Source: Desulforhopalus sp. (GTDB lineage Bacteria; Desulfobacterota; Desulfobulbia; Desulfobulbales; Desulfocapsaceae). Taken from it: DNA of 64,000 nt. The stretch covers positions 14,863-78,862 of the forward strand of contig JBLHNA010000014.1 in the NCBI GenBank assembly GCA_047619065.1. Direction: 5' to 3'. The notes below the pieces were generated by a model that worked only from the letters and a program-made list of their open reading frames with translations, was not told the origin of the DNA and ran no database searches. Shown in pieces: positions 31,719 to 57,523 of this stretch (the stretch's first letter is position 1; each line of letters starts with the position of its first letter). The position numbers and the translations under genes were made by a program.

Positions 31719-31898
31719 AAACTGAAATCGTATCTGACAGGTTCTATTTTGAGTTTCAATTTATTCTGACATTTTGCAATTTGTTGTTTTTTCTGTACCT
31801 GTTTAAAAGTATTATCAACAAATGAACTATCTGAAAATGGAGCAATACTTTAGAACATTTTAGTTATTTAGAATTGTGCTTCTCTGCTCTCAGGATGT

Positions 31899-31948
31899 AC
31901 AGGAATAGGGTAAATTTTCAGATTTGCTTAAATGGTTTACATTGCCAA
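31899..31948 (+). repeat. Copy A of a ~50-bp dispersed intergenic repeat (core TTTGCTTAAATGGTTxACxTTGCCAA)
   Basis: ACAGGAATAGGGTAAATTTTCAGATTTGCTTAAATGGTTTACATTGCCAA. Compare copies at 49998-50047(-), 55513-55550(+) and 57221-57270(+). Confidence 0.75.
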
Positions 31949-32244
31949 CAACAGTCTCTAGTTAAGAGATTATTGAAGTAATAAGATCTTCGGTATGGCT
32001 AGCTAAATGGCTGAACTGCTTAGCGGATGGACACTGGAACTCTGGGTGGTTCAATTCTAAATCCTGTTACATACAGTATTCACGTTTAACTTTGGCGATA
32101 CGGATTAAAAAAAAGAACACCACAAAGTGCAGCCCTTTTTCCTTGCCTTTTGTTGCTCTAGCTATTTATCCAGTTGGTGAAACGCTTATGTGTTTTTTTG
32201 CATGGGCCCTAAGTCCCCTTTTTTAGTTGGGTCTACTCCTATGC

Positions 32245-38880: not shown

Positions 38881-40243
38881 TAACAACAGGAGGTGATAGG
38901 GGGCAGTATAGAATCTCAGACAAAACAACACTAAGTTAGTAATAACAGAATATTCTTTTACAACTACTGGAAGTTCGAAAAACGACATTTTGCGACAATG
39001 ATCTAAAAAGAGATCTATTGGCAATTTAAATGATTGAGTCAATTCTGCATATTAAGCTTACTGACCAGGTTATCTCAGCAATTGATAGTTGAATGTAGCA
39101 TTGCCACAACGAGGCTAATCAATGTTGAATTACGCTCCAACGAAAGGTATTTCCTGATCAGGTATTCTCAGAAACTGAGGCTTCCGTTTAACCTTGCCAA
39201 ATCGAAGATAAGCAGTCTTGCCTTTCCCTTTAGTTTGAGATGTTTCCTGTCCATTTCAGAAATAACTCCTCATGAAGGTAAATTGAACAGATTTTAGTGC
39301 CTCAAACGGCAGTAGATACGTCTTTTGCGGTGTGACTTTACCTTACCAGAATTTCTTGCAAAACATTAAACTGCTCCTGCAGCACCTACCTTTCTGCTCG
39401 TTTTCGAATGATAGAGGGGGCACCTTTCTCCTCTTTTCTTTTGTTTCGTTGATACGGTAATACTGCCAGCCATACCGCCTCACCACTTACTTTTGTGCAG
39501 AAAACATGACGGTGAGCCGACCAATGACCCAGGATATGGAGCTATATTTTGGTGAAGATATAGAGTTGAAGACCTATCTGTCTGGCTGAGTCTTGACAGG
39601 AAACACCTCAAGTTGGAGCTATTGACTCGCTTCGTTACCTTCGACCTGGCAATGTCAAGCCCAACGCTCAGTTACCAAATTTACACTGTCTTTGGTAAGG
39701 TAAAGTCTGCAGTTGCTCCATTTTCCTACAGTTTTAATGAAATGTCGGGTTCTACCTTATCAATGATAAAGTTAACCTACATCCCTTCTTATTTAGTTAA
39801 GATTGCCATTCGCATAGTTTATAGTGTTATTCTTTTGATCGAGTACCATTCCGGGTGGTGCGGATGCCGTGATTAGCCCAAACTCTTTTCCTGTTCAAAT
39901 CTGTATTTGCAACAAAAAATGAGATTGGGCCTCCCTAACTCATGCATAAGAAAGGCATTGATAAAATTTGCTAGGCAATGTGATTTTCCACTCAGCTGAC
40001 AAGCCTGGTGAATTGGTTGTAACGGTTGATGCAAAAAACAACAAGGCAGCCCTGACCATCTGATGAAGGTAGACTCCGAATCTCTTTTTCAAGATCATTC
40101 GTGTCTTATATTTTCACTCGCCATGAAGATTTTAGATTCAAATGTTTGTTATTTGGATTGATATATTTATTTCACAAAGTATAATATAATCAATATGTTT
40201 TCACTGTAATAGCATTCTTTTCTTTTATAGGGTGACTCTACAC

Positions 40244-43200
40244 ATGAAAAACGTCCGCATTTTCATATCCTCTCCAGGCGATGTTGCCGAAGAACGTAAC
40301 CGAGCTAAGCAAGTCGTCGAACAGCTCCGCCGTCGTTACGCCGGTCGGCTAACCCTGGAATCTGTGTTGTGGGAAGATCTTCCCCTTCAGGCAGACATGT
40401 CCTTTCAAGAAGGCATCGATCTTGTCCTCTCCAACGAGCATGGACTCGACATCGCCCTGTTTATCCTCTGGTCACGTCTAGGAACTCCCTTGGGCGCGTT
40501 AATTACCAAAGAAGATGGCACTGAGTACCGTTCAGGTACAGAACGAGAGTTGGACCTGATTCTCCGTGCCAGAGCGCAGGCTAAGGAAAAAACCGGGGAA
40601 AACGACAATCATCCAGTTCGACCAGATATCCTCGTTTACCTCCGCGCCGACGACACCAGCTTTGATGAACGGTTGCGAGGGCATTCGACTGATGAAAAGG
40701 AAAAGCTGATCAATCAAAAGAAACTCGTAGAGCAATTTATTCGCGAAGAGTTTCATGATCCTGATAGCGGCAGCAACATCCGCGCCTATCACTCGTTTAA
40801 TATCCCCACCACCTTCTCTCAAAGGTTACGCGTCCATTTGCAGGAATTGCTCGACAAGATGGTAACTGATATCGAAGGCCAGCCGATTTGGGACATTGAT
40901 CAAAAAGGCCCTCCTTTCCGTGGTTTGGAGTCTTTTGATTACGAACATACTGACGTGTTTTTCGGCCGTGAGGACGAGATTCTTGAAGTTCGCCAAGCCC
41001 TTCGGCAGCAGGCACGAAACGGCTGCGCCTTTGTTCTCATTTCCGGGGCCAGCGGCAGTGGTAAATCCTCCCTCGCGCGTGCCGGAGTTCTTCCCACCCT
41101 CACCAGTTACGAAATCGATGAAAGTATTGTTGGTTGGCGCTATGCAGTGTTTAGCCCCGGACAGGTGGCGGGCGACGGTCTGATTCGTGGCCTTGCACTG
41201 TTTCTGATGAGCAACACGGCCTTGCCCGAACTTCGCAATGATGACCAGACGCTTGATGACCTCACCGAGGGATTAGCCAAGGATCCCGAGGTTACCTACA
41301 AACTTCGAATAAAACAGGCGCTGCAAAAAGCAGCAGAAGACAAGCTGGGAAGTATCCGTCTGGTACTTCTAGTTGATCAGTTTGAAGAACTGTTTACCGA
41401 TCCTCGCATCAAACCCGAGGAACGGGTACTCTTTGTTAATGCTCTCGATGCTCTGGCCCGAAGCGGCATGGTCTGGGTGATGGCCACGGTGCGCAGTGAT
41501 TTTTATGAACGTTGTGAACAACTTCCAGTGCTCATGGCCATGAAGGGAAGCGGTGGCCAGTTTTCCGTCCAGGTCCCTGGGGTTGATGCCCTGCGCCGCT
41601 TGATCACCGAGCCAGCCCGCCTGGCAGGTCTCAAGTATGAAGAATGTGATGGAAAAACCCTTGACAGTGTCATCCTGGATGACGCGTCACAGCATCTTGA
41701 GTTACTGCCACTGCTCGAATATCTGTTGCTGGAACTCTTCCGGGCGCGCACAAAGGATAACGTACTGACCTTTGTTGCATATGAAAACTTCGCGGCATAC
41801 ACCCAGGACGGCCTGAAACTCGGCGGCATCCGGGGCGCACTTGCTAAACGGGCTGAGGAGACTTGGCTCCAAGTCAATTCCAGTGAACCTGTTTTTGCCT
41901 CGGTTATGAAATCACTGATTACCATCGGTGGTGAGGAAGAAGAAAGCGCCGTCCGCCGTACCAGCCCCCTCGCCAATGTCACCGATACCCCAGAAAAATA
42001 TGCCTTTGTCCAAGCCTTTATAGAGGCTCGCCTCTTTGCCACGCAAGGTGAGTCACAGCAAAACGAAGAACAGCTGCAAAGCGATTCACATTTAGAAAGT
42101 GGTTCAAATGAAAAACAAGGGACGAATGCAACCGTTTCCGTTGCCCATGAAGCATTATTTCGAGTGTGGGGCAAAGCAGTCAACTGGATCGAAGCCAACA
42201 CAGAATTCCTCAGAGTGCGAGCCCAGGTCGCTCAACGCATGCAACAAGGAGGTGTCCTCCTGCCGGGTGACCCCCTTTTCGAACGAGCAAGAGCCCAGCT
42301 GACCCAACAACGCGAGAGTTTTGATGGGAAACAAGTTCTATTTATTGAAAAAGCGATTGCTAATGCCGAGCGGAAAAAAAAGCGCGCCAAAAAAATTCGA
42401 CACTCAGTCATCGCCGGGTTGCTCCTCCTGACACTTGCTGCGCTGGGAGGTATGGGGTTGGCGCGCCTTGAGTCAGGTAAATCTAAGAAAATCACTACTG
42501 AAACCCAACTTCGAGAAGCCAAGTTTACTTGGCTCCCACGCGCCAAAAACGCAACAATTAACAGGATATTTCCACAAAACGTTCTTTACGCCGGTCGTGC
42601 TCTCAGTTTCAGGGGCTATGGTTTTAATAAGCTTTCTCCAGAAGAACAAATTTCTATTGAGAAGCAATTCCCCAAACTTTTTGTCTTTGCTGACTATCGA
42701 GAATTGCATCAAGACCTCCGACAGCAGATAGAAGGGCACATAAAACCCTTGCTGCCGATATGGACAAGTCCAGTGACTAATCACCACAAGTCATCTGTTA
42801 ACAGCGTGGCCTTCAGCCCGGATGGCAACACCCTGGCAAGCGGAGGTGGGTACGAGGACAATATTATCAAGTTGTGGGATGTTGTCTCCGGCGATGTGCT
42901 GCACAGTTTAAGTGGACATACGGGATCTGTCAACAGCGTGGCCTTTAGCCCGGATGGCAAAACCCTGGCAAGCGGAGGTGGGTACAAGGACAATATTATC
43001 AAGCTGTGGGACGTGGCCTCCGGTAAAGAGATAGGCAGTTTAAGCGGACATATGAGATCTGTCAACAGCGTGGTCTTCAGCCCGGATGGCAAAACCGTGG
43101 CAAGTGGCAGTGGGGACAAAATCATCAAGTTGTGGGATATTGCCTCTGGCAAAGAAACAGGCAGTTTAAGCGGACATACGGGTTCTGTCGCCAGCGTAGC

Positions 43201-45946
43201 CTTCAGCCCGGATAGTAAAACCCTGGCAAGCGGAGATGAGTACAAGGACAATATTATCAAGCTGTGGGACGTGGCCTCCGGTAAAGAGATAGGCAGTTTA
43301 AGTGGACATACGGGATCTGTCAACAGCGTGGCCTTCAGCCCGGATGGCAACACCCTGGCAAGCGGAGGAGGGTACGAGGACAATATTATCAAGCTGTGGG
43401 ACGTGGCCTCCGGTAAAGAGATAGGCAGTTTAAGTGGACATACGGGATCTGTCAACAGCGTGGCCTTCAGTCCGGACGTTAAAACTCTGGTAAGCGGTAG
43501 TAGTGACAAAACCATCAAGCTGTGGGATTGGGCCTCCGGTAAAGAGATAGGCAGTTTAAGCGGACATGGGGGTACTGTCACCAGCCTGGCCTTTACCCTT
43601 GATGGTAAAACTTTGGTTAGCGGCAGTGATGACAAAACCATCAAGCTATGGGATCTGACTAGCGGCAAACAGAAAGGTATTTCAAACGGATATGAATCTA
43701 ATCTCATCAGTGTTACCTTCAGCCCTGATGGTAAAATCCTGGCAAGCGTGCGTGAAGACAAAACTATCAAGCTATGGGATGTGGCCAGCGGCAAAGAGAA
43801 AGGGACTTTAAACGGACATAGGTCTAATCTCACCAGCGTGGCCTTCAGCCCGGACGGTAAAACCCTGGCAAGCGGCAGTAGAGACAAAACCATCAAGCTA
43901 TGGGATCTGGCCAGCGGCAAAGAGCAAGGCAGTTTAAGCGGCCATGGGGATACTGTCACAAGCGTGGTCTTTAACCCGGATGGAAAAACCTTGGCTAGTG
44001 TCAGTTGGGACGATACTATCAAGCTATGGGATGTTGTCTCCGGCGATGTGCTGCACAGTTTAAGTGGACATATGGGAGATGTCCGCAGTGTGGCCTTCAG
44101 CCCGGATGGAAAAACCCTGGCAAGCGGCAGTGCTGACGATACCATCAAGCTATGGGATGTGGCCTCCGGTAAAGAGAAGGGTAGTTTAAACGGACATGTG
44201 GAAACTGTCACCAGCGTGGCTTTCAGCCCAGATGGTGAAACCCTGGCAAGCGGCAGTATAGACACTAGCATCAAGCTGTGGGATATGACCACAGGAAAAC
44301 AGAAAGGTAACTTAAGCGGACATGGGGATACTGTCACCAGCGTGGTCTTCAGCCTGGATGGAAAAATTCTGGCAAGTGGCAGTTTGGACAAGACAATCAA
44401 ACTGTGGGATCTGGCCAGCGGCAAAGAGCAAGGCAGTTTAAGCGGCCATGGGGATACTGTCACCAGCGTGGCCTTCAGCCCAGATGGTAAAACCCTGGCT
44501 AGCGGCAGTGAGGACAAGACAATCAAACTGTGGGATATTGCCACCACCAAAGAGCAAGGTAGTATAAGCGGACATGGTGGGGTGCGTTTTGTCCTCAGCG
44601 TCGCCTTCAGCCCAAATGGCGAGACCCTAGCAAGTGGCTGTTTGGACAATACCATCATGCTGTGGTGGGATTCGGATACCGGCAAAAATACTATCAGTTT
44701 AAGCGGAAATGTGGGTATTGTCACCAGCGTCACCTTTAGCCCAGATGGCAATATCCTAGCAAGCGGGAGTAGAGACAATACCATCAAACTGTGGGACGTG
44801 ACCTCCGGTAAAGAGATAGGCAGTTTAAGCAGACATACGGAACCTGTTAACAGCGTCGCCTTCAGCCCAAATGGCGAGACCCTAGCAAGTGGCAGTGAGG
44901 ACAATACCATCATGCTATGGGATTGGGGCTCAGGCAAAGAAACAGGCAGTTTAAGCGGCCATGCGGATTCTGTTCGTAGTGTGGCTTTCAGCCCGGATGG
45001 AAAAACCCTGGCAAGCGGCAGTATGGACAAAACCATCAAGCTATGGGATTGGGGCTCAGGCAAAGAAACAGGCAGTTTAAGCGGCCATGCGGATTCTGTT
45101 TGTAGTGTGGCTTTCAGCCCGGATGGAAAAACCCTGGCAAGCGGCAGTATGGACAAAACCATCAAGCTATGGGATTGGGCCGCTGGCAAAGAAACAGGAA
45201 GCTTAAGCGGACATACGGAACCTGTTAACAGTGTGGCTTTCAGCTCGGATGGCAAAACCCTGGCAAGCGGCAGTATGGACAAAACCATCAAGCTGTGGGA
45301 TTGGGCCTCTGGCAAAGAAACAGGAAGCTTAAGCGGACATACGAAAACTGTTAACAGCGTGGCCTTCAGCCCGGATGGAAAAACCCTGGCAAGCGGCAGT
45401 ACGGACACTAGCATCAAGCTATGGGATGTGGATGCAGACTATCACTTCAATTTGTTAGGATATTTTGTCAACGAATGGTACGAATTTGACCAAGAGACCG
45501 GCGATGTAATCCCTGCAACTCCTCTCAGTAATCTCTACGGGTCGAAAGATTTTGGATTTCTCAACGTGGGTGCTTGGACGCACGTTGGTGTCTTGCAAAG
45601 TGCCAAAACTCTTGAAGAACAAAACCGCCGTCTCTATAACCACTACCTCTATAGCAACGGGGCGCTTGGTGCCTTAGCCCTTCTTGACCAACCCATGGAC
45701 GAGAAACCCGATGCCACCCCACTCGCCGCCTACGCAGCCGCACTTTTTACCCAAGACGGCCAACAAGATCGAGCCCGCATTTTTTTCGACCGCTTGCGGT
45801 TCACGAAATGGGGCCGGCAAAACCTTGCCTCAAAGGAAATGATCGATCGATTGAATATAGACGATGCCACGACAATATCATTGAAACAGTTGCTGCTTGT
45901 GGCAAATCAAACTAATGGACCATTGGAATCAGGAGCTGAAAAATAG
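40244..45946 (+). CDS. Giant (1901 aa) STAND-type protein. Domain order: DUF4062/TIR-like N-terminus, P-loop NTPase, single TM helix, 21 WD40 blades, ~170-aa unknown C-terminal domain.
   Basis: VRIFISSPGDVAEERNRAKQVVEQL (DUF4062-type start). PPFRGLESFDYEHTDVFFGREDEI followed by Walker A GASGSGKS (41045-41068) and Walker B-like LVLLVDQFEELF. KKKRAKKIRHS-VIAGLLLLTLAALGGMGLA (TM, 42407-42463). 21 repeats of the (S/N)VAFSPDGKTLASGS.DKTIKLWD type. Confidence 0.9.
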   Translation: MKNVRIFISSPGDVAEERNRAKQVVEQLRRRYAGRLTLESVLWEDLPLQADMSFQEGIDLVLSNEHGLDIALFILWSRLGTPLGALITKEDGTEYRSGTERELDLILRARAQAKEKTGENDNHPVRPDILVYLRADDTSFDERLRGHSTDEKEKLINQKKLVEQFIREEFHDPDSGSNIRAYHSFNIPTTFSQRLRVHLQELLDKMVTDIEGQPIWDIDQKGPPFRGLESFDYEHTDVFFGREDEILEVRQALRQQARNGCAFVLISGASGSGKSSLARAGVLPTLTSYEIDESIVGWRYAVFSPGQVAGDGLIRGLALFLMSNTALPELRNDDQTLDDLTEGLAKDPEVTYKLRIKQALQKAAEDKLGSIRLVLLVDQFEELFTDPRIKPEERVLFVNALDALARSGMVWVMATVRSDFYERCEQLPVLMAMKGSGGQFSVQVPGVDALRRLITEPARLAGLKYEECDGKTLDSVILDDASQHLELLPLLEYLLLELFRARTKDNVLTFVAYENFAAYTQDGLKLGGIRGALAKRAEETWLQVNSSEPVFASVMKSLITIGGEEEESAVRRTSPLANVTDTPEKYAFVQAFIEARLFATQGESQQNEEQLQSDSHLESGSNEKQGTNATVSVAHEALFRVWGKAVNWIEANTEFLRVRAQVAQRMQQGGVLLPGDPLFERARAQLTQQRESFDGKQVLFIEKAIANAERKKKRAKKIRHSVIAGLLLLTLAALGGMGLARLESGKSKKITTETQLREAKFTWLPRAKNATINRIFPQNVLYAGRALSFRGYGFNKLSPEEQISIEKQFPKLFVFADYRELHQDLRQQIEGHIKPLLPIWTSPVTNHHKSSVNSVAFSPDGNTLASGGGYEDNIIKLWDVVSGDVLHSLSGHTGSVNSVAFSPDGKTLASGGGYKDNIIKLWDVASGKEIGSLSGHMRSVNSVVFSPDGKTVASGSGDKIIKLWDIASGKETGSLSGHTGSVASVAFSPDSKTLASGDEYKDNIIKLWDVASGKEIGSLSGHTGSVNSVAFSPDGNTLASGGGYEDNIIKLWDVASGKEIGSLSGHTGSVNSVAFSPDVKTLVSGSSDKTIKLWDWASGKEIGSLSGHGGTVTSLAFTLDGKTLVSGSDDKTIKLWDLTSGKQKGISNGYESNLISVTFSPDGKILASVREDKTIKLWDVASGKEKGTLNGHRSNLTSVAFSPDGKTLASGSRDKTIKLWDLASGKEQGSLSGHGDTVTSVVFNPDGKTLASVSWDDTIKLWDVVSGDVLHSLSGHMGDVRSVAFSPDGKTLASGSADDTIKLWDVASGKEKGSLNGHVETVTSVAFSPDGETLASGSIDTSIKLWDMTTGKQKGNLSGHGDTVTSVVFSLDGKILASGSLDKTIKLWDLASGKEQGSLSGHGDTVTSVAFSPDGKTLASGSEDKTIKLWDIATTKEQGSISGHGGVRFVLSVAFSPNGETLASGCLDNTIMLWWDSDTGKNTISLSGNVGIVTSVTFSPDGNILASGSRDNTIKLWDVTSGKEIGSLSRHTEPVNSVAFSPNGETLASGSEDNTIMLWDWGSGKETGSLSGHADSVRSVAFSPDGKTLASGSMDKTIKLWDWGSGKETGSLSGHADSVCSVAFSPDGKTLASGSMDKTIKLWDWAAGKETGSLSGHTEPVNSVAFSSDGKTLASGSMDKTIKLWDWASGKETGSLSGHTKTVNSVAFSPDGKTLASGSTDTSIKLWDVDADYHFNLLGYFVNEWYEFDQETGDVIPATPLSNLYGSKDFGFLNVGAWTHVGVLQSAKTLEEQNRRLYNHYLYSNGALGALALLDQPMDEKPDATPLAAYAAALFTQDGQQDRARIFFDRLRFTKWGRQNLASKEMIDRLNIDDATTISLKQLLLVANQTNGPLESGAEK
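42781..45432 (+). repeat. Array of 21 tandem WD40-encoding units (126 nt; four units of 132 nt), several near-identical at the DNA level
   Basis: Units 44915-45040 and 45041-45166 differ at one base (44975 C vs 45101 T). ~80 nt at 43261-43340 is repeated exactly at an offset of +132. A ~45-nt stretch, GGGATGTTGTCTCCGGCGATGTGCTGCACAGTTTAAGTGGACATA, occurs at ~42876 and ~44026. Confidence 0.95.
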
Positions 45947-46111
45947 AGGTAGTTATCAGGAGATTGGATACATGGTGACAGGTATGCTTGATTAAAGCAG
46001 AAGAGTGGGGGATAGTTTTTTATAACGAATCGTTCCGTCGGCTAAACAGGAGAACTAAAGGTTAATATTTCCACATAAAAGGTATGATATATTCCACAAT
46101 ACTGAGATTTT

Positions 46112-46330
46112 ATGATGTCTATTATTGTTATCAAGGGCGAGAGCATGATCCTGACCTGGAGCGTGGATAGCACCGCTCGCTTCTGGGATATCCAATGGGC
46201 TATGGGTGACACTAACGATCCTAAATTTGTCCATGACCTCCACCGTGAAAAACTTGTCGGCGCTCCACCACCAACGCCCTGGGATACCCTTAAGTCTCTG
46301 CTATGGCCTTCAAGCACGCAGAGTAGATAG
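46112..46330 (+). pseudogene. Orphan, diverged WD40-blade fragment in the gap between gene 1 and gene 2
   Basis: The 72-aa ORF contains ILTWSVDSTARFWDI (D-x-T-x-R-x-WD blade end). It has no RBS and no propeller context. Confidence 0.35.
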
Positions 46331-46368
46331 TTACAGGCAAACAGATACCGTCAAAACAGGTGAATCAG

Positions 46369-48339
46369 ATGAACGTTTTTATAGTCCGCCCCTTTGGCGA
46401 AAAAGAGGGGATCAACTTTGACGAGGTCGAAAATCTGCTGATTCAGCCAGCTCTAAAGAGCATTGATGTCCATGGCAGCACGACCGGAGTAATCGTCAAG
46501 GCTGGCAATATTCGCCATGACATGTTCCAATTGCTGCTTGTGGCAGATCTGGTTATTGCCGATATCTCGATCCACAACGCCAATGTCTTTTACGAACTTG
46601 GCATTCGCCATGCCCTCCGTGATAAACGGACGATTATGATCCGCTGCGGCAGCAATGAAGTTCCCTTCGATCTGAAAACTGATCGCTACCTTTCATACGA
46701 CAAAAACGACCCGGCCGAGTCTCTTCCTGTACTGATCCAATCATTACAAGATACGATTGCCTCTCAGGATAAGGACAGCCCAGTGTTTCAGTTACTGCCT
46801 GATCTTGAGGCGCAGGATCAGAGCCGGTTTATAGTGGTGCCCAAGGATTTCCAGGAAGAAGTTGATCTCGCTCGGATACATCAGTGGCAGGGAGATTTGA
46901 AGCTGCTGGCAGAGGAAGTGCAAGGTCTCTTTTGGGCAAGAGAGGGACTCCGCATTATAGGTAGAGTTCAATTCAAATTACAGGATTATGAGGGAGGTCG
47001 TGATACCTGGGAGCAGGTTCGCAAGGTGTACCCGGATGTCCTTGAAGCCAACCTGCTTCTCGGCACCATATATCAACGCCTAGGTGATCTGGCCTGCTCT
47101 GATCAGGCAATAGAGAGGGTTCTCTCTCAAAAGTGCAGTTCAACGAGTGACCGGGCCGAAGCATATGCCCTGCGTGGCCGAAATAGTAAAATACGCTGGC
47201 AGGCCGATTGGTTAAACAGTCCTGAACCGGATGTACCCCAAAATGCCCTGCGCTCCCCCCATCTGCTGCAGGCCTTTACAGCCTACGAGCAAGGCTACCT
47301 TCAGGATCTTAACCATTATTATTCAGGAATTAATGCACTGGCCCTACTGGTGGTTCTCACCGACCTTGCCGCCCGTTTTCCTGAGGTCTGGGTGACCTGT
47401 TTTGACGAGGACGATGAGGCTATTCAACGGCTCAAATACCTGGGTAAGCGGTGTACTGAATTGGCAAGCACCGTCACTCTTTCTCTCAAAGCGGAGAAGG
47501 ATCGCTTAACGCGTTCGGAGCAGGAAGATGTCTGGTTCGATATCACCTGTGCTGATCTTCGTTGTTTGACACTGACGCGCCCCGAACGGGTGGCGCAAGC
47601 CTACCGCACTGCCTTTAATAAAATTGACCCCTTCTCATATGAGTCTGCAGCCCAGCAGTTGCAAATGTTAGAAACTCTAGGTGTCCGAAAGGACAATGTG
47701 CAGGCGGCAGTCCAGGAGATAACTGTCCTGCGGCCGACAGCCGAGCGAAAGGTAAAAAAGGAGCCCCATGTGTTGCTTTTTACAGGGCATATGATTGATC
47801 AGGATGACAGGGAGCAACCGAGGTTCCCTGCTGCAAAGGAATCAGCAGTGCGGCAAGAGATTGAAAAACATGTTGCAGCCGAACTGTCACGGGTTGAGGG
47901 AGAGCTTATCGGGGTGACAGGCTGTGCCTGCGGAGGGGATATCTTGTTTCATGAAGTTTGTGCCGATCTGGGGATTATAACCAAAATATATCTCGCTCTG
48001 CCCAAGGATCAGTACATTGTTACCTCTGTGCAACATGGCGGACCACAGTGGGTAGATCGGTTCAATCAGCTTAACCAGCGTCTTGATTCTCGTATACTCT
48101 CAACTACAAAAGAACTGCCACGGTGGCTTCAAGAGAAAGACAAATACTCCTTCTGGCAACGCAACAATCTCTGGACATTTTATAATGGTTTGGCTCTTGG
48201 CGAGGCAAATATGTCTTTGATTGCCCTTTGGGATGGCCGGGGGGGCGATAGCCCGGGCGGCACTGAAGACATGGTAAAACACGCCAGATCCCATGGGGCC
48301 AAGGTTATTATCATTGACATAAACACGATATGTTCATGA
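46369..48339 (+). CDS. Three-module protein: N-terminal TIR-like/flavodoxin-like domain (DUF4071-type, from memory), central TPR-like helical region, C-terminal SLOG/LOG-like Rossmannoid domain
   Basis: MNVFIVRPFGEKEGINFDEV...ADLVIADISIHNANVFYELGIRHAL. The helical middle has LLLGTIYQRLGD and YYSGINALALL. The C-terminus has VLLFTGHMID...GVTGCACGGD (47920-47940) and SPGGTEDM (48250-48270), resembling the LOG PGGxGTxxE motif. AGGTGA RBS before the ATG at 46369. Confidence 0.75.
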   Translation: MNVFIVRPFGEKEGINFDEVENLLIQPALKSIDVHGSTTGVIVKAGNIRHDMFQLLLVADLVIADISIHNANVFYELGIRHALRDKRTIMIRCGSNEVPFDLKTDRYLSYDKNDPAESLPVLIQSLQDTIASQDKDSPVFQLLPDLEAQDQSRFIVVPKDFQEEVDLARIHQWQGDLKLLAEEVQGLFWAREGLRIIGRVQFKLQDYEGGRDTWEQVRKVYPDVLEANLLLGTIYQRLGDLACSDQAIERVLSQKCSSTSDRAEAYALRGRNSKIRWQADWLNSPEPDVPQNALRSPHLLQAFTAYEQGYLQDLNHYYSGINALALLVVLTDLAARFPEVWVTCFDEDDEAIQRLKYLGKRCTELASTVTLSLKAEKDRLTRSEQEDVWFDITCADLRCLTLTRPERVAQAYRTAFNKIDPFSYESAAQQLQMLETLGVRKDNVQAAVQEITVLRPTAERKVKKEPHVLLFTGHMIDQDDREQPRFPAAKESAVRQEIEKHVAAELSRVEGELIGVTGCACGGDILFHEVCADLGIITKIYLALPKDQYIVTSVQHGGPQWVDRFNQLNQRLDSRILSTTKELPRWLQEKDKYSFWQRNNLWTFYNGLALGEANMSLIALWDGRGGDSPGGTEDMVKHARSHGAKVIIIDINTICS

Positions 48340-48388
48340 GATTAATGACTACAGACACCATTTAATTTATAGCAAAGGGAAAATCGAC

Positions 48389-49540
48389 ATGACACTTGCA
48401 GAAAAAATCAAAGCACCTGGCAGCAAGAAAATTCTGGCCCTTGACGGTGGTGGTATTCGCGGAATCATGACTGTTGAAATTCTGGCAGGTATTGAAGCAA
48501 TTTTGCGAAAATCCCTGGACAATCAGGCTCTTGTTCTCGCTGATTATTTCGATTTCATCGCCGGTACAAGTACGGGTGCAATAATCGCTACTTGCCTTTC
48601 CCTTGGCATGAGCAGTTCAGAAGTGAGTGATTTCTACGAGAAAAGCGGCGAAGCGATGTTTGATAAGGCATCGCTGTTAAAGCGCTTCCGTTACAGTTAT
48701 GAAGATAAAAAGCTTGCAGCAAAACTTCGGGAAGTCATTAATGGCGGATCAGACAAGCCAGATATCACTCTTGGTACCGATAGGCTGAAAACTCTGCTGC
48801 TGATGGTAATGCGAAATGCCTCCACAGATTCCCCATGGCCCATTTCAAACAACCCCGGTGCAAAATACAATCAACTTGAAAGAAGAGAGCAATCTACAGG
48901 TGATTGCAATCTCGATATCCCACTCTGGCAACTGGTGCGTGCCAGCACAGCTGCACCTGTGTATTTTCCTCCAGAAGTCGTAAAGGTCGGTGGAAAGGAA
49001 TTTGTCTTTGTCGATGGCGGCATTACCACCTATAACAACCCCGCTTTTCAGGCGTTTCTCATGGCAACGGTTAAACCCTACAACCTTAACTGGTCGACCG
49101 GCGAAGATCAATTTCTGGTCGTTTCAGTCGGCACCGGCACCAGTCCCGATGCCAATGCAGACCTCGATTCTTCAGATATGAACCTGCTTTATAATGCCGG
49201 CTCCATACCTTCGGCGCTCATGTTTGCCGCACTTAACGAACAGGATTTTCTCTGTCGGGTTTTCGGTAAATGTCTGGCAGGAGACAAACTTGATAATGAG
49301 GTTGCTACAATGATCGGGGCGGAGGGAGCAGGTCCGATAAACCCGAAACTCTTTACTTATTTACGCTACAACGCCGAGCTAACAGTAAAGGGACTTACTG
49401 ATCTCGGTCTCCCAGAAATCAACCCCAAAGACGTCCAGAAACTTGATTCAGTGAAACATATGAAGAAACTGCAGCTTATCGGGCAGAAGGTGGTGGAAAA
49501 AAAGATGCACTTAGAGCACTTTGCCGCATTTACCGACTAA
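48389..49540 (+). CDS. Patatin-like phospholipase
   Basis: Oxyanion DGGGIRG (48443-48463), nucleophile elbow GTSTG (48563-48577), catalytic Asp in FVDGG (Asp 49013-49015). Starts 49 nt downstream of the previous gene. Confidence 0.92.
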   Translation: MTLAEKIKAPGSKKILALDGGGIRGIMTVEILAGIEAILRKSLDNQALVLADYFDFIAGTSTGAIIATCLSLGMSSSEVSDFYEKSGEAMFDKASLLKRFRYSYEDKKLAAKLREVINGGSDKPDITLGTDRLKTLLLMVMRNASTDSPWPISNNPGAKYNQLERREQSTGDCNLDIPLWQLVRASTAAPVYFPPEVVKVGGKEFVFVDGGITTYNNPAFQAFLMATVKPYNLNWSTGEDQFLVVSVGTGTSPDANADLDSSDMNLLYNAGSIPSALMFAALNEQDFLCRVFGKCLAGDKLDNEVATMIGAEGAGPINPKLFTYLRYNAELTVKGLTDLGLPEINPKDVQKLDSVKHMKKLQLIGQKVVEKKMHLEHFAAFTD

Positions 49541-49997
49541 CAGGCCGCGTATGATTTTCGGTTGCATATTTTCTACAAGGCCAAGAAAAACTGCATGCGG
49601 TGTAACCATGAAGTGTATCGGGTCTACTGGGTGTTTTCCATTTACTCAATAATAGACCTCGAAATTTTTTTACTCTTAGCCGAGAAACACACTCGTGACC
49701 AAGCACCGTTACAATTATTGCTATACCCGGTGCTTCTACCAGGAAGAATCACCTGAGGAGATTTCAACTATTCTCGAATTTCTAGGTGACTGATACTTTC
49801 TTACTTTACATCGATTGCCTATTGAGCTTGCCAGGACAAACCTCTTTACCAAAAAAAAATCTCCAAAACGTAATAGATCACTGCATTCAGGACGTTCTGC
49901 TTTGCCAAATTCCTAACAATAAAACATGAGTTTGAAAGATAAGACTATCCATGAGAGGTTACAGGATTACACGACATCACGGTCTAAGAGACTAGAA

Positions 49998-50047
49998 TTG
50001 GCAAGGTTAACCATTTAAGCAAACCTGCAATTTAGGACTATTCCTGT
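49998..50047 (-). repeat. Copy B of the dispersed ~50-bp repeat (inverted orientation)
   Basis: The reverse complement reads ACAGGAATAGTCCTAAATTGCAGGTTTGCTTAAATGGTTAACCTTGCCAA. Confidence 0.75.
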
Positions 50048-50469
50048 ATCTGTGAACCTGGGGCTGGATTAAAGAACGGCCTCAGATTTGCTTTATCCTA
50101 CTTGAAAACTGTTGTCAGGTTTGGGATCTGATACCACAACACAATCAACGTCATCCTGTTCAACACTATCACTTGTGAGTATCTTTAAGATGTAATCAAA
50201 ACATGTCCTTTGAAAAACGTCAGATCAAGTCTCGATTTCTACAGATAAAAAGAAATAAATATCACGCCCACGTGCTACCCACAGCAAACGTTAAATATAA
50301 AGGAACATGGATCCCTGTATTCGAGCGATTTTAGAATGCAGAGGTCATTTACGCAAAAGCAGTTCTACTAACCAAGGGTCCTGTACAGTACAATCTCTTT
50401 AAACTTCCACATCACGATATGCATGATCATTATTTTCCATAACAAGCTGTTTTGTTGTCACTTTTTCGA

Positions 50470-55208: not shown

Positions 55209-55512
55209 TTATCCCCGCACTCAAGCGCTCCACTCCTAGTGTGTAACTCAAGTTACACACTCCACATTTTTCGTACAAATATGGTACATTATTCTAGAGT
55301 AAAATAAGGTGCTTGCATGTTTTCTGAAGTGCCTTTTTTGTTTATTGACACTTCGGTCAAGATTCAATATAGATATATGGACTTTTTGATCTGCGCGCAA
55401 GCAACGCCCTCCGCACCAAATGAGTCAAACCTTCGTCCCGCATAATCTGGAAGCATCTTTGACCGCAAACTGTTCCATTTCTGGGAAGATTTTCAGGCAG
55501 GAGTATTTATGA

Positions 55513-55550
55513 ACAAGAATAGTCCTAATTTGCAGGTTTGCTTAAATGGT
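55513..55550 (+). repeat. Copy C of the dispersed repeat; truncated after AAATGGT
   Basis: ACAAGAATAGTCCTAATTTGCAGGTTTGCTTAAATGGT, after which similarity to the other copies stops. Confidence 0.7.
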
Positions 55551-55600
55551 AAAGATCCAATAATAGCCTCTACTGTTGCGATAACGTGTGGCCATTTTGA

Positions 55601-57085: not shown

Positions 57086-57220
57086 AGTGGGTCATGTTCC
57101 TGGGTAATAAGTAATCTGGCAGTGTTAAAAGACGGGGCCAGTAATAACACTCGAAAACGTATTATGCCAGGGTTGACAGGTAAGTGGTGTTTTCCAAGGC
57201 TGGGTCGAACCAAGAGGTGA

Positions 57221-57270
57221 ACAGGAATAAGGTGGACTTGCAGGTTTGCTTAAATGGTTAACATTGCCAA
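57221..57270 (+). repeat. Copy D of the dispersed ~50-bp repeat
   Basis: ACAGGAATAAGGTGGACTTGCAGGTTTGCTTAAATGGTTAACATTGCCAA. Confidence 0.75.
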
Positions 57271-57523
57271 TATAAATATTTTGTTTCAACACTGACTTAT
57301 CGGCTAACAATATTTACAATCGTTATGCTCGCATGGTGATTGAGAAAAGATAAAGAATGATATGTATATGAGATATATTACACCACATTCCTCAAATATT
57401 TGAGAAGATGATCATATTCACTTTTATTCAGAATGCTTTTGATATCATTCACAGTATACCAAATTTCCGAATCAGGAAGCATGCCTGAAAAGAGGGCTCA
57501 CCTAAAGAAATTATATTTAGGAA

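Follow-up and report, generated by a model that had tools for sequence, protein, structure and literature searches.

A TPR-S hub-patatin pair and a DUF4062-like/nSTAND1/WD40 protein in an acquired defence island of Desulforhopalus sp.

The island and the genes that travel together

A 64-kb stretch of DNA from a metagenome-assembled genome (MAG) of Desulforhopalus sp. (hereafter the window) was analyzed with respect to three genes for which an earlier note had proposed a role in conflict or defence. Gene 1 encodes a giant protein with a signal transduction ATPase (STAND) module and a WD40 array, gene 2 a three-part protein (hereafter the hub) and gene 3 a patatin-like phospholipase, and each is an exact match of a database protein (accessions in Table 1). 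As had been described, all three are read in the same direction (+ strand). Genes 1 and 2 are separated by 413 bp, genes 2 and 3 by 49 bp.

The GC content inside the three genes (0.46-0.54) exceeds that of the flanks (0.38-0.42), which carry genes for a TctCAB transporter and a GntR/FCD regulator upstream, and for an FMN reductase, a DsbA-like protein and a glutathione reductase downstream. At 78% identity, the right-hand boundary matches the right end of a metagenomic island related to this one (L005, 15481-15590), in which the same gene 2-gene 3 pair occurs together with other cargo (SEFIR/TIR_2, PLD and a different giant gene), and these two ends point to a common integration site with variable cargo. 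The GC step, the housekeeping flanks and the right junction in common with L005 mark the region as a defence island that was gained by horizontal transfer and varies in content, and the proposed conflict or defence island is borne out further by defence-type domains in all three proteins. The AT-rich, gene-free spacer reported at 38.9-40.2 kb is indeed free of open reading frames (ORFs) longer than 87 amino acids (aa), but its GC content (0.41) is not below that of the neighbouring flanks.

The gene 2 protein used singly as a query found just one distant locus. With a gene 2 alignment 80 metagenomic loci were recovered, and 94 hub loci were scanned with hidden Markov models (HMMs). Of the 38 loci that extend 1,250 bp or more to either side, 22 had a gene 3-type patatin adjacent to the hub, and HMMs detected patatin in 22 of the 43 loci flanked by 6 kb or more. 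In most cases it directly precedes the hub and shares its strand, sometimes it lies downstream as in this island, and the two genes are 4-50 bp apart in contigs of Pyrinomonadaceae, Desulfocapsaceae and Geobacter-like bacteria. Pairing of gene 2 with patatin is conserved in different phyla and is seen in roughly half of the well-flanked loci. The HMM of the gene 1 N-terminal module matched none of the 94 hub loci and that of its NTPase two, and in the closest relative, in which the gene 2-gene 3 pair is 76-84% identical, a lipase-CHAT-TPR-S giant occupies the position of gene 1. The earlier note had put the three genes forward as a candidate for one undescribed system and had proposed neighbourhood conservation as a check; the pair recurs and the triad does not, as gene 1-type proteins are not conserved with it.

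Hub loci without patatin have other effector-type neighbours, often with a TPR-S of their own. Lipase-CHAT-TPR-S giants lie near the hub in eight loci; further neighbours of this kind are an alpha/beta-hydrolase-TPR-S protein and a kinase-FHA-TIR protein. A different variant, seen in one locus, combines the hub with a calcineurin-like phosphoesterase, a long patatin and a TPR-S protein of small size. TIR-domain ORFs flank the hub in 11 of 43 loci (with WD40, PASTA, CHASE2, Sel1, TPR or ThsB-like tails) and some members of the hub family are themselves fused to TIR_2. Altogether, caspases, CHAT, TIR, PLD, STAND and Cas4-like genes were found next to hubs.

Two side observations concern these neighbourhoods. 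Each of the giants joins a TPR-S of its own to an LCAT/DUF7379 lipase-like domain and a CHAT protease, and they occur beside hubs with or without patatin (Table 1). In locus L087 (4834-10651) a patatin, a TIR_2-fused hub of 843 aa and another hub paralog of 659 aa follow one another in tandem.

The hub protein, its patatin partner and Thoeris

Gene 2 has at least 3,391 homologs of ~655-670 aa with ~50% identity in Acidobacteriota, Gammaproteobacteria, Desulfobacterales and other groups. It is a three-part hub made up of a MilB/DNPH1-like N-glycosidase domain, a TPR-S and a DprA/LOG-like (SLOG-like) domain, which appear in the AlphaFold2 (AF2) model (predicted local distance difference test (pLDDT) 86, predicted TM-score (pTM) 0.80) as an alpha/beta domain at the N-terminus (N-domain), a body of TPR helices and a Rossmann-like domain at the C-terminus (C-domain). 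Pfam recognises only the TPR-S, besides a sub-threshold MAP3K_TRAF_bd match, and no Pfam family matched either terminal domain. The C-domain family comprises 1,191 50%-cluster representatives at E<=1e-10; its GGD and PGGT loops are conserved and many of its polar residues are invariant, and the PGGT(E/x)D loop is reminiscent of LOG enzymes.

In Foldseek the full-length model retrieved generic TPR proteins only (SPY, OGT, APC), so the terminal domains were modelled as a joined N+C chimera (window-derived, aligned to full-length homologs; pLDDT 82). Its matches fall into two groups, the first with the CMP N-glycosidase MilB, DNPH1/Rcl (19% identity, TM ~0.6), nucleoside 2'-deoxyribosyltransferase (NDT) and TIR domains, the second, likewise for a predicted model, with DprA 5mll (prob 0.99, TMt 0.47), 3uqz and ShosA. 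Judging by the alignment lengths, we infer that the first group aligns to the N-domain and the second to the C-domain, and the structural check proposed for these termini would give a TIR/DRHyd-fold N-domain and a DprA-like C-domain. PDB-sequence profile searches with the whole protein, the N-domain or the C-domain yielded only designed TPRs or noise, and at the profile level relatedness between the N- and C-domains was not detected. With hhalign, the N-domain matched human DNPH1 (E 2.5e-4), placing E79 of YELG on the catalytic GYELG glutamate. The spacing N73-x-N75-x3-E79 equals that of Bacillus cereus BcTpr (N80-P81-N82...E86), in which N82A or E86A abolishes activity and defence (preprint).

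The N-terminal module had been described as being of the same type as that of gene 1; profile-profile comparison finds no relationship, the grouping of the two N-domains as one family was rejected (hhalign probability 0.1), and only a beta1-type motif is common to both. Independently of this, homologs of the gene 2 N-domain (35-38% identity; H26-H35) were observed in temperate phages that infect Streptococcus, Staphylococcus or Enterococcus. In Streptococcus phage Javan37, the sole phage examined, the homolog sits within a 231-aa protein (L095, 2483-3178) between repressor and cro in the lysogeny module, and this protein matches PADLOC PDLC00733 (E 2.6e-18).

Searches of plasmids with tblastn retrieved shorter proteins homologous to residues 4-322 and 4-434 of gene 2 (E 1e-16 to 1e-22, 25-28% identity), annotated as 'TRAFs-binding domain-containing protein'. 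On Klebsiella pneumoniae and Rhizobium plasmids they adjoin TIR-domain genes and a gene for DUF4231, which we take to be a SLATT-type domain; we read this arrangement as a probable type VII/VIII Thoeris layout. In view of this homology beside TIR genes, gene 2 would combine a ThsI-like core with a SLOG-like domain attached to it: in a comparison made with the plasmid homologs, the N-terminal half shows homology to ThsI-type proteins. As a separate observation, the K. pneumoniae plasmid pB19293_6 (L090) has a type VII/VIII Thoeris-like layout in which one ThsI-like gene is accompanied by two TIR genes and one for DUF4231, and these genes directly adjoin the resistance genes sul1, qacEdelta1 and qnrB6 and a Tn3 transposase.

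ThsI, which has a CMP-hydrolase domain and the TPR that Aravind's group predicted, is reported to be activated by TIR-made canonical cyclic ADP-ribose (cADPR; bioRxiv 10.64898/2025.12.03.692087), and BcTpr was reported in a preprint to produce a cADPR isomer via the equivalent glutamate. These type VIII Thoeris proteins have in common with gene 2 the TPR-S, the N-x-N-x3-E motif and an N-glycosidase-type domain, and ThsI-type proteins and gene 2 both match PDLC00733. Gene 2 differs from ThsI in an extra SLOG-like C-terminal domain of 190 aa (~660 vs. ~400-450 aa in total), and its operon differs from type VIII Thoeris in having a patatin lipase as partner and no TIR gene. In type I Thoeris, ThsA (SIR2-SLOG) also couples an enzyme domain to a SLOG-type Rossmann-like domain, which in ThsA binds the TIR-made signal; unlike ThsA, gene 2 lacks a SIR2 domain, and its C-domain falls outside the Pfam SLOG families and is DprA-like in predicted structure only.

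The TPR-S scaffold was reportedly predicted by Burroughs and Aravind, in the Journal of Bacteriology in 2020, to read signals derived from nicotinamide adenine dinucleotide (NAD+). A later preprint (10.1101/2023.05.26.542521) credits patatin-TPR assemblies to Burroughs & Aravind 2020, and the partners of TPR-S assemblies are given, by way of the citing preprint, as patatin, SLOG-family, TIR, calcineurin and caspase. As far as those accounts go, the hub loci resemble these systems in their patatin, TIR, calcineurin and caspase partners. Genes 2 and 3 are, by their predicted domains, a TIR-less, patatin-linked variant of TPR-S/Thoeris-like systems, one that was computationally foreseen and the function of which is predicted only.

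Gene 3 matches Pfam Patatin (PF01734, 90.8 bits) and all three catalytic motifs are present, so the description of an intact patatin lipase holds. The suggested link to CapV, the lipase of the cyclic oligonucleotide-based antiphage signaling system (CBASS), was likewise recovered: gene 3 is a patatin-fold lipase with an intact Ser-Asp dyad, and in PADLOC as in NCBIfam it matches CBASS lipases best (E 1.4e-43 to the CBASS phospholipase effector of PADLOC). It differs from CBASS CapV in scoring below the equivalog cut-off (NCBIfam CBASS_lipase, NF041079, 116.7 bits against 200) and in having no adjoining CD-NTase, its neighbours being gene 2 and housekeeping genes.

It is doubtful, in our estimation, that the pair is self-contained and TIR-less, with a hub that detects infection and uses its N-glycosidase or LOG-like domain to make a nucleotide product of its own, the product or direct contact then activating the patatin. 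Many hub loci with patatin in which TIR was not detected, the cADPR isomer attributed to BcTpr, and the invariant polar residues and LOG-reminiscent loop of the C-domain would suit such a system; however, a recogniser of fast-evolving invaders would rarely be as conserved as this family, with its ~50% identity between phyla, a Sorek-type study has ThsI as both receptor and effector of TIR-made cADPR, and TIR genes and TIR fusions recur with the hub family. It is highly improbable that genes 2 and 3 are a non-immune housekeeping or stress module coupling a nucleotide signal to lipid remodelling: strong conservation, a very wide spread in soil and sediment bacteria and the lack of a match to any named PADLOC system would fit, but the pair is patchily distributed and placed in an island, has caspase, CHAT, TIR, PLD, STAND and Cas4-like neighbours, and is homologous to a Thoeris effector and to CapV.

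The DUF4062-like/nSTAND1/WD40 protein

Gene 1 comprises, in this order, a divergent DUF4062/NIR TIR-like domain, an nSTAND1 NTPase, a transmembrane (TM)-like segment, 21 WD40 blades and a C-terminal tail. All motifs quoted in the earlier note (VRIFISSPGDVAEER, FRGLESF..FFGRE, GASGSGKS and DQFEE) were found; the STAND-style NTPase is confirmed by a Pfam nSTAND1 match above the cut-off with intact Walker A and Walker B, and the 21 blades by 21 Pfam WD40 stretches, and the TM helix corresponds to a hydrophobic, TM-like segment. At the DNA level, the array consists of 21 repeat copies of 126-132 nt each, and the blades are near-identical, with variation focused on 4-5 positions per 42-residue blade.

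Its family numbers more than 2,800 proteins, in which the N-terminal module is constant and the C-terminal sensor is exchanged. N-domain and NTPase are retained in 118 of the 120 best homologs, among which WD40, TPR, FGE-sulfatase, Sel1 and ankyrin sensors are swapped. DUF4062 was matched by 14 of 15 sampled family members (E<=1, best E 1.4e-7). Three 2026 preprints (including bioRxiv 10.64898/2026.09.04.749371 and 10.64898/2026.05.01.722283) describe DUF4062, now called NIR, as a TIR-like NADase with an essential glutamate within positions 97-108 (E97, E98, E103, E108), with an Avs2 protein and human TEP1 among the examples, and so far it has been reported to make plain ADP-ribose (ADPR) and deplete NAD+, not to signal. 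The glutamates of the SGTERE motif (E100/E102) fall within this catalytic range.

The TM-like segment is preceded by a KKKRAKKIRH cluster, and an equivalent segment directly follows nSTAND1 in 85 of 121 family members. Around it, K+R amount to 6.0 upstream vs. 3.1 downstream, and 77 proteins of the family are upstream-rich vs. 4. This suggests that the segment of gene 1 is a membrane anchor, possibly with a sensor facing the periplasm, and under the positive-inside rule, the K+R bias would place the sensor array outside the cytoplasm, such that WD40, TPR or FGS arrays across the family may face the periplasm. In the two Kaur et al. papers searched, no discussion of a conserved membrane segment after the NTPase was found.

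PADLOC Avs models did not match gene 1, the only PADLOC matches being HEAT-ARM_XIII, which is due to the WD40 array, and PDC-S60, which is weak. Kaur et al. 2021 (PMC8195603) described nSTAND1 proteins as a core with swappable N-terminal effectors and C-terminal FGS, TPR or WD40 sensors; gene 1 has the same core with swappable effectors and sensors, and differs in that its N-terminal effector is DUF4062-like. PsAvs2-DUF4062 and human TEP1/NWD1 (DUF4062-NACHT-WD40) likewise combine a TIR-like NADase domain, a STAND NTPase and a repeat sensor and, like gene 1, have a conserved glutamate near position 100, whereas gene 1 has nSTAND1 instead of the Avs2-type or NACHT NTPase, a divergent DUF4062 and a TM-like segment before the sensor. 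By its predicted domains, gene 1 is an additional member of the known nSTAND1-sensor and DUF4062-STAND proteins.

Reading of the island and its further features

On balance, the region is probably an acquired defence island of two units that do not need each other. The first would be gene 1, by analogy a one-protein sensor, switch and effector resembling nucleotide-binding leucine-rich repeat (NLR) and Avs proteins: the 21-blade array would recognise a trigger, the nSTAND1 NTPase would then oligomerise, and the oligomer would gather the N-terminal DUF4062/NIR TIR-like domains, leading to NAD+ hydrolysis by which the infected cell is stopped. The second unit would be genes 2 and 3, presumably one operon working like a Thoeris-type effector stage. 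Here a TIR-type protein, of the sort often encoded next door elsewhere, would make an NAD+-derived nucleotide signal to be bound by the TPR-S and/or SLOG-like domain; the bound signal would switch on the glycosidase, with depletion of nucleotides or NAD+, and the hub would also activate the CapV-like patatin, directly or via a product, so that degradation of membrane phospholipid would result in abortive infection.

It seems unlikely that the three genes form one system in which gene 1 acts as sensor and, through its STAND-gated, TIR-like DUF4062 domain, as maker of an ADPR-type signal that the hub reads, firing glycosidase and patatin. All three genes run the same way and genes 1 and 2 have no terminator-like site between them, no canonical TIR was found elsewhere in the window by a search of limited sensitivity, and TIR proteins with sensor-like tails stand beside hubs in other loci, all of which would agree with such a system; against it stand the near absence of gene 1 modules from hub loci, the CHAT-TPR-S giant in place of gene 1 in the closest relative, the 413-bp gap before gene 2, the wide occurrence of the gene 1 family on its own and the plain ADPR and NAD+ depletion reported for DUF4062. 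A more specific variant, in which a membrane-spanning STAND signal generator with a periplasm-facing, hypervariable WD40 array would sense the invader from outside the cytoplasm and have its DUF4062 product read by the TPR-S/SLOG hub, which in turn would act through glycosidase and patatin, appears quite improbable.

Several observations weigh against the favoured reading of two independent units. As regards independence, neither a terminator-like nor a promoter-like site was found on the + strand between genes 1 and 2, and the two may be co-transcribed. In L084 the hub has a TIR-WD40 gene upstream of it in the same orientation, and in L092 a DUF4062-NACHT/NPHP3_N-WD40 gene lies 1.9 kb downstream of the hub-patatin pair. 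The encoded L092 protein is not orthologous to gene 1; as TIR genes and one analogous DUF4062-STAND-WD40 protein recur near hubs, there is nonetheless room for a functional link between gene 1 and the hub. As regards the signal, genes 1-3 have no Pfam TIR match and nine TIR queries run by phmmer over the window, a search of limited sensitivity, found none, while the ThsI and BcTpr preprints disagree on whether a cADPR-type molecule is sensed or made. As regards the domains, Foldseek gives no query range per match on the chimeric gene 2 model, the alpha/beta terminal domains of which are confirmed by structure prediction and Foldseek only, and the SLOG assignment of the C-domain comes from predicted structure only, as the Pfam SLOG families did not match the C-domain of gene 2 or of 13 relatives. 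The TIR-like/TPR/SLOG description given earlier for gene 2 stands at the level of the predicted fold, and in Pfam for TPR-S, but not as a SLOG family match. Similarly, the DUF4062-type start proposed for gene 1 is upheld by its family, but the protein alone (N-terminal 215 residues) scores 18.1-18.5 bits against the Pfam cut-off of 24.7.

The combination had been said to match no named system. This is correct for the hub-patatin pair, for which no model was found in PADLOC 2023 or NCBIfam 2026, but each module maps onto a described kind, and the three-domain hub with patatin is unnamed rather than categorically new. It represents a very large family, common in soil and sediment bacteria, that lies outside these two defence catalogues. 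The TPR-S is also built into animal ASK1, and the hub could address what this scaffold binds, whether a Thoeris-type effector runs without an adjacent TIR and what activates a CapV-like lipase in systems other than CBASS. Gene 1 is a bacterial DUF4062-STAND-WD40 protein with the domain order of human TEP1/NWD1, and the conserved membrane segment of its family raises the possibility of outward-looking NLR-like sensors.

Table 1 Features of the window (positions 1 to 64 kb) and related features in other loci (own numbering)
Feature	Position	Strand	Remarks
Gene 1	40244..45946	+	ORF opens 40232/40244; ATG 40244 in MFT5699878.1; 1900 aa
N-terminal domain, divergent DUF4062/NIR (TIR-like NADase family)	40244..40888	+	Own profile score below cut-off; family matches
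SGTERE motif (E100/E102)	40532-40549	+	E102 invariant, E100 in >=90% of 15 family members
nSTAND1 NTPase	40913..42244	+	Pfam PF20703, residues 224-667, 269.7 bits vs. cut-off 27.1
Walker A GASGSGKS	41045-41068	+	In nSTAND1
Walker B DQFEE	41375-41389	+	In nSTAND1
Hydrophobic TM-like segment VIAGLLLLTLAALGGMGLA	42407..42463	+	Residues 722-740, Kyte-Doolittle mean 2.22
21 WD40 blades	42767..45478	+	Pfam WD40 stretches; DNA repeats
Gene 2	46369..48339	+	ORF opens GTG 46360 (residues counted from here); ATG 46369 in MFT5699880.1; 656 aa
N-terminal MilB/DNPH1-like N-glycosidase (TIR/DRHyd-fold) domain, predicted	46360..46815	+	Foldseek, hhalign, PADLOC PDLC00733 match
NANVFYELG motif	46576-46602	+	N73, N75, E79 invariant
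Helical TPR region	46837..47727	+	All-helical in AF2 model, pLDDT >90
Pfam TPR-S match	46984-47349	+	PF20308, residues 209-330, 50.3 bits vs. cut-off 27.6
C-terminal Rossmann-like, SLOG-like domain, predicted	47755..48336	+	AF2 pLDDT 85-97; Foldseek
LLFTGH motif	47773-47790	+	C-domain of gene 2
GCACGGD motif	47920-47940	+	C-domain of gene 2
PGGTED motif	48253-48270	+	C-domain of gene 2
Gene 3	48389..49540	+	Patatin-like phospholipase, MFT5699881.1; 383 aa
DGGGIRG motif	48443-48463	+	Intact
GTSTG motif (S61)	48563-48577	+	Intact
VDGG motif (D209)	49010-49024	+	Intact
Right-hand island boundary	49895..50003	.	Compared with L005
Promoter-like site TTGATA-16-TATAAT	40158..40185	+	11/12 consensus matches only; ~55 bp upstream of gene 1
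Dispersed repeat, ~60 nt	31896-31963	+	Intergenic
Dispersed repeat, ~60 nt	49987-50048	-	Intergenic
Dispersed repeat, ~60 nt	55510-55577	+	Intergenic
Dispersed repeat, ~60 nt	57218-57285	+	Intergenic
Lipase-CHAT-TPR-S giant	L005 924-6497		
Lipase-CHAT-TPR-S giant	L034 3-3851		
Lipase-CHAT-TPR-S giant	L040 8236-13752		
Lipase-CHAT-TPR-S giants	L031, L032, L042, L077, L079		

Among the minor features, a strong terminator-like hairpin (39413-39434, +) lies in the upstream spacer, ~530 bp past the GntR gene. The gap between genes 1 and 2 contains a 72-aa ORF (46112-46330, +) with a WD-like 'ARFWD' motif; no gene remnants were found when the three intergenic regions were compared by blastx with all proteins collected, so this ORF is unsupported as one, and the NCBI protein numbering implies an annotated gene between genes 1 and 2. 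Neither a match in an Rfam search of the window nor a covariation-supported structure of the dispersed repeat was found. The dispersed repeat that had been noticed downstream of the island is real, with four copies in the window, and its conserved core reads ...ACAGGAATAG...TTGCAGGTTTGCTTAAATGGTTAACATTGCCAAT.

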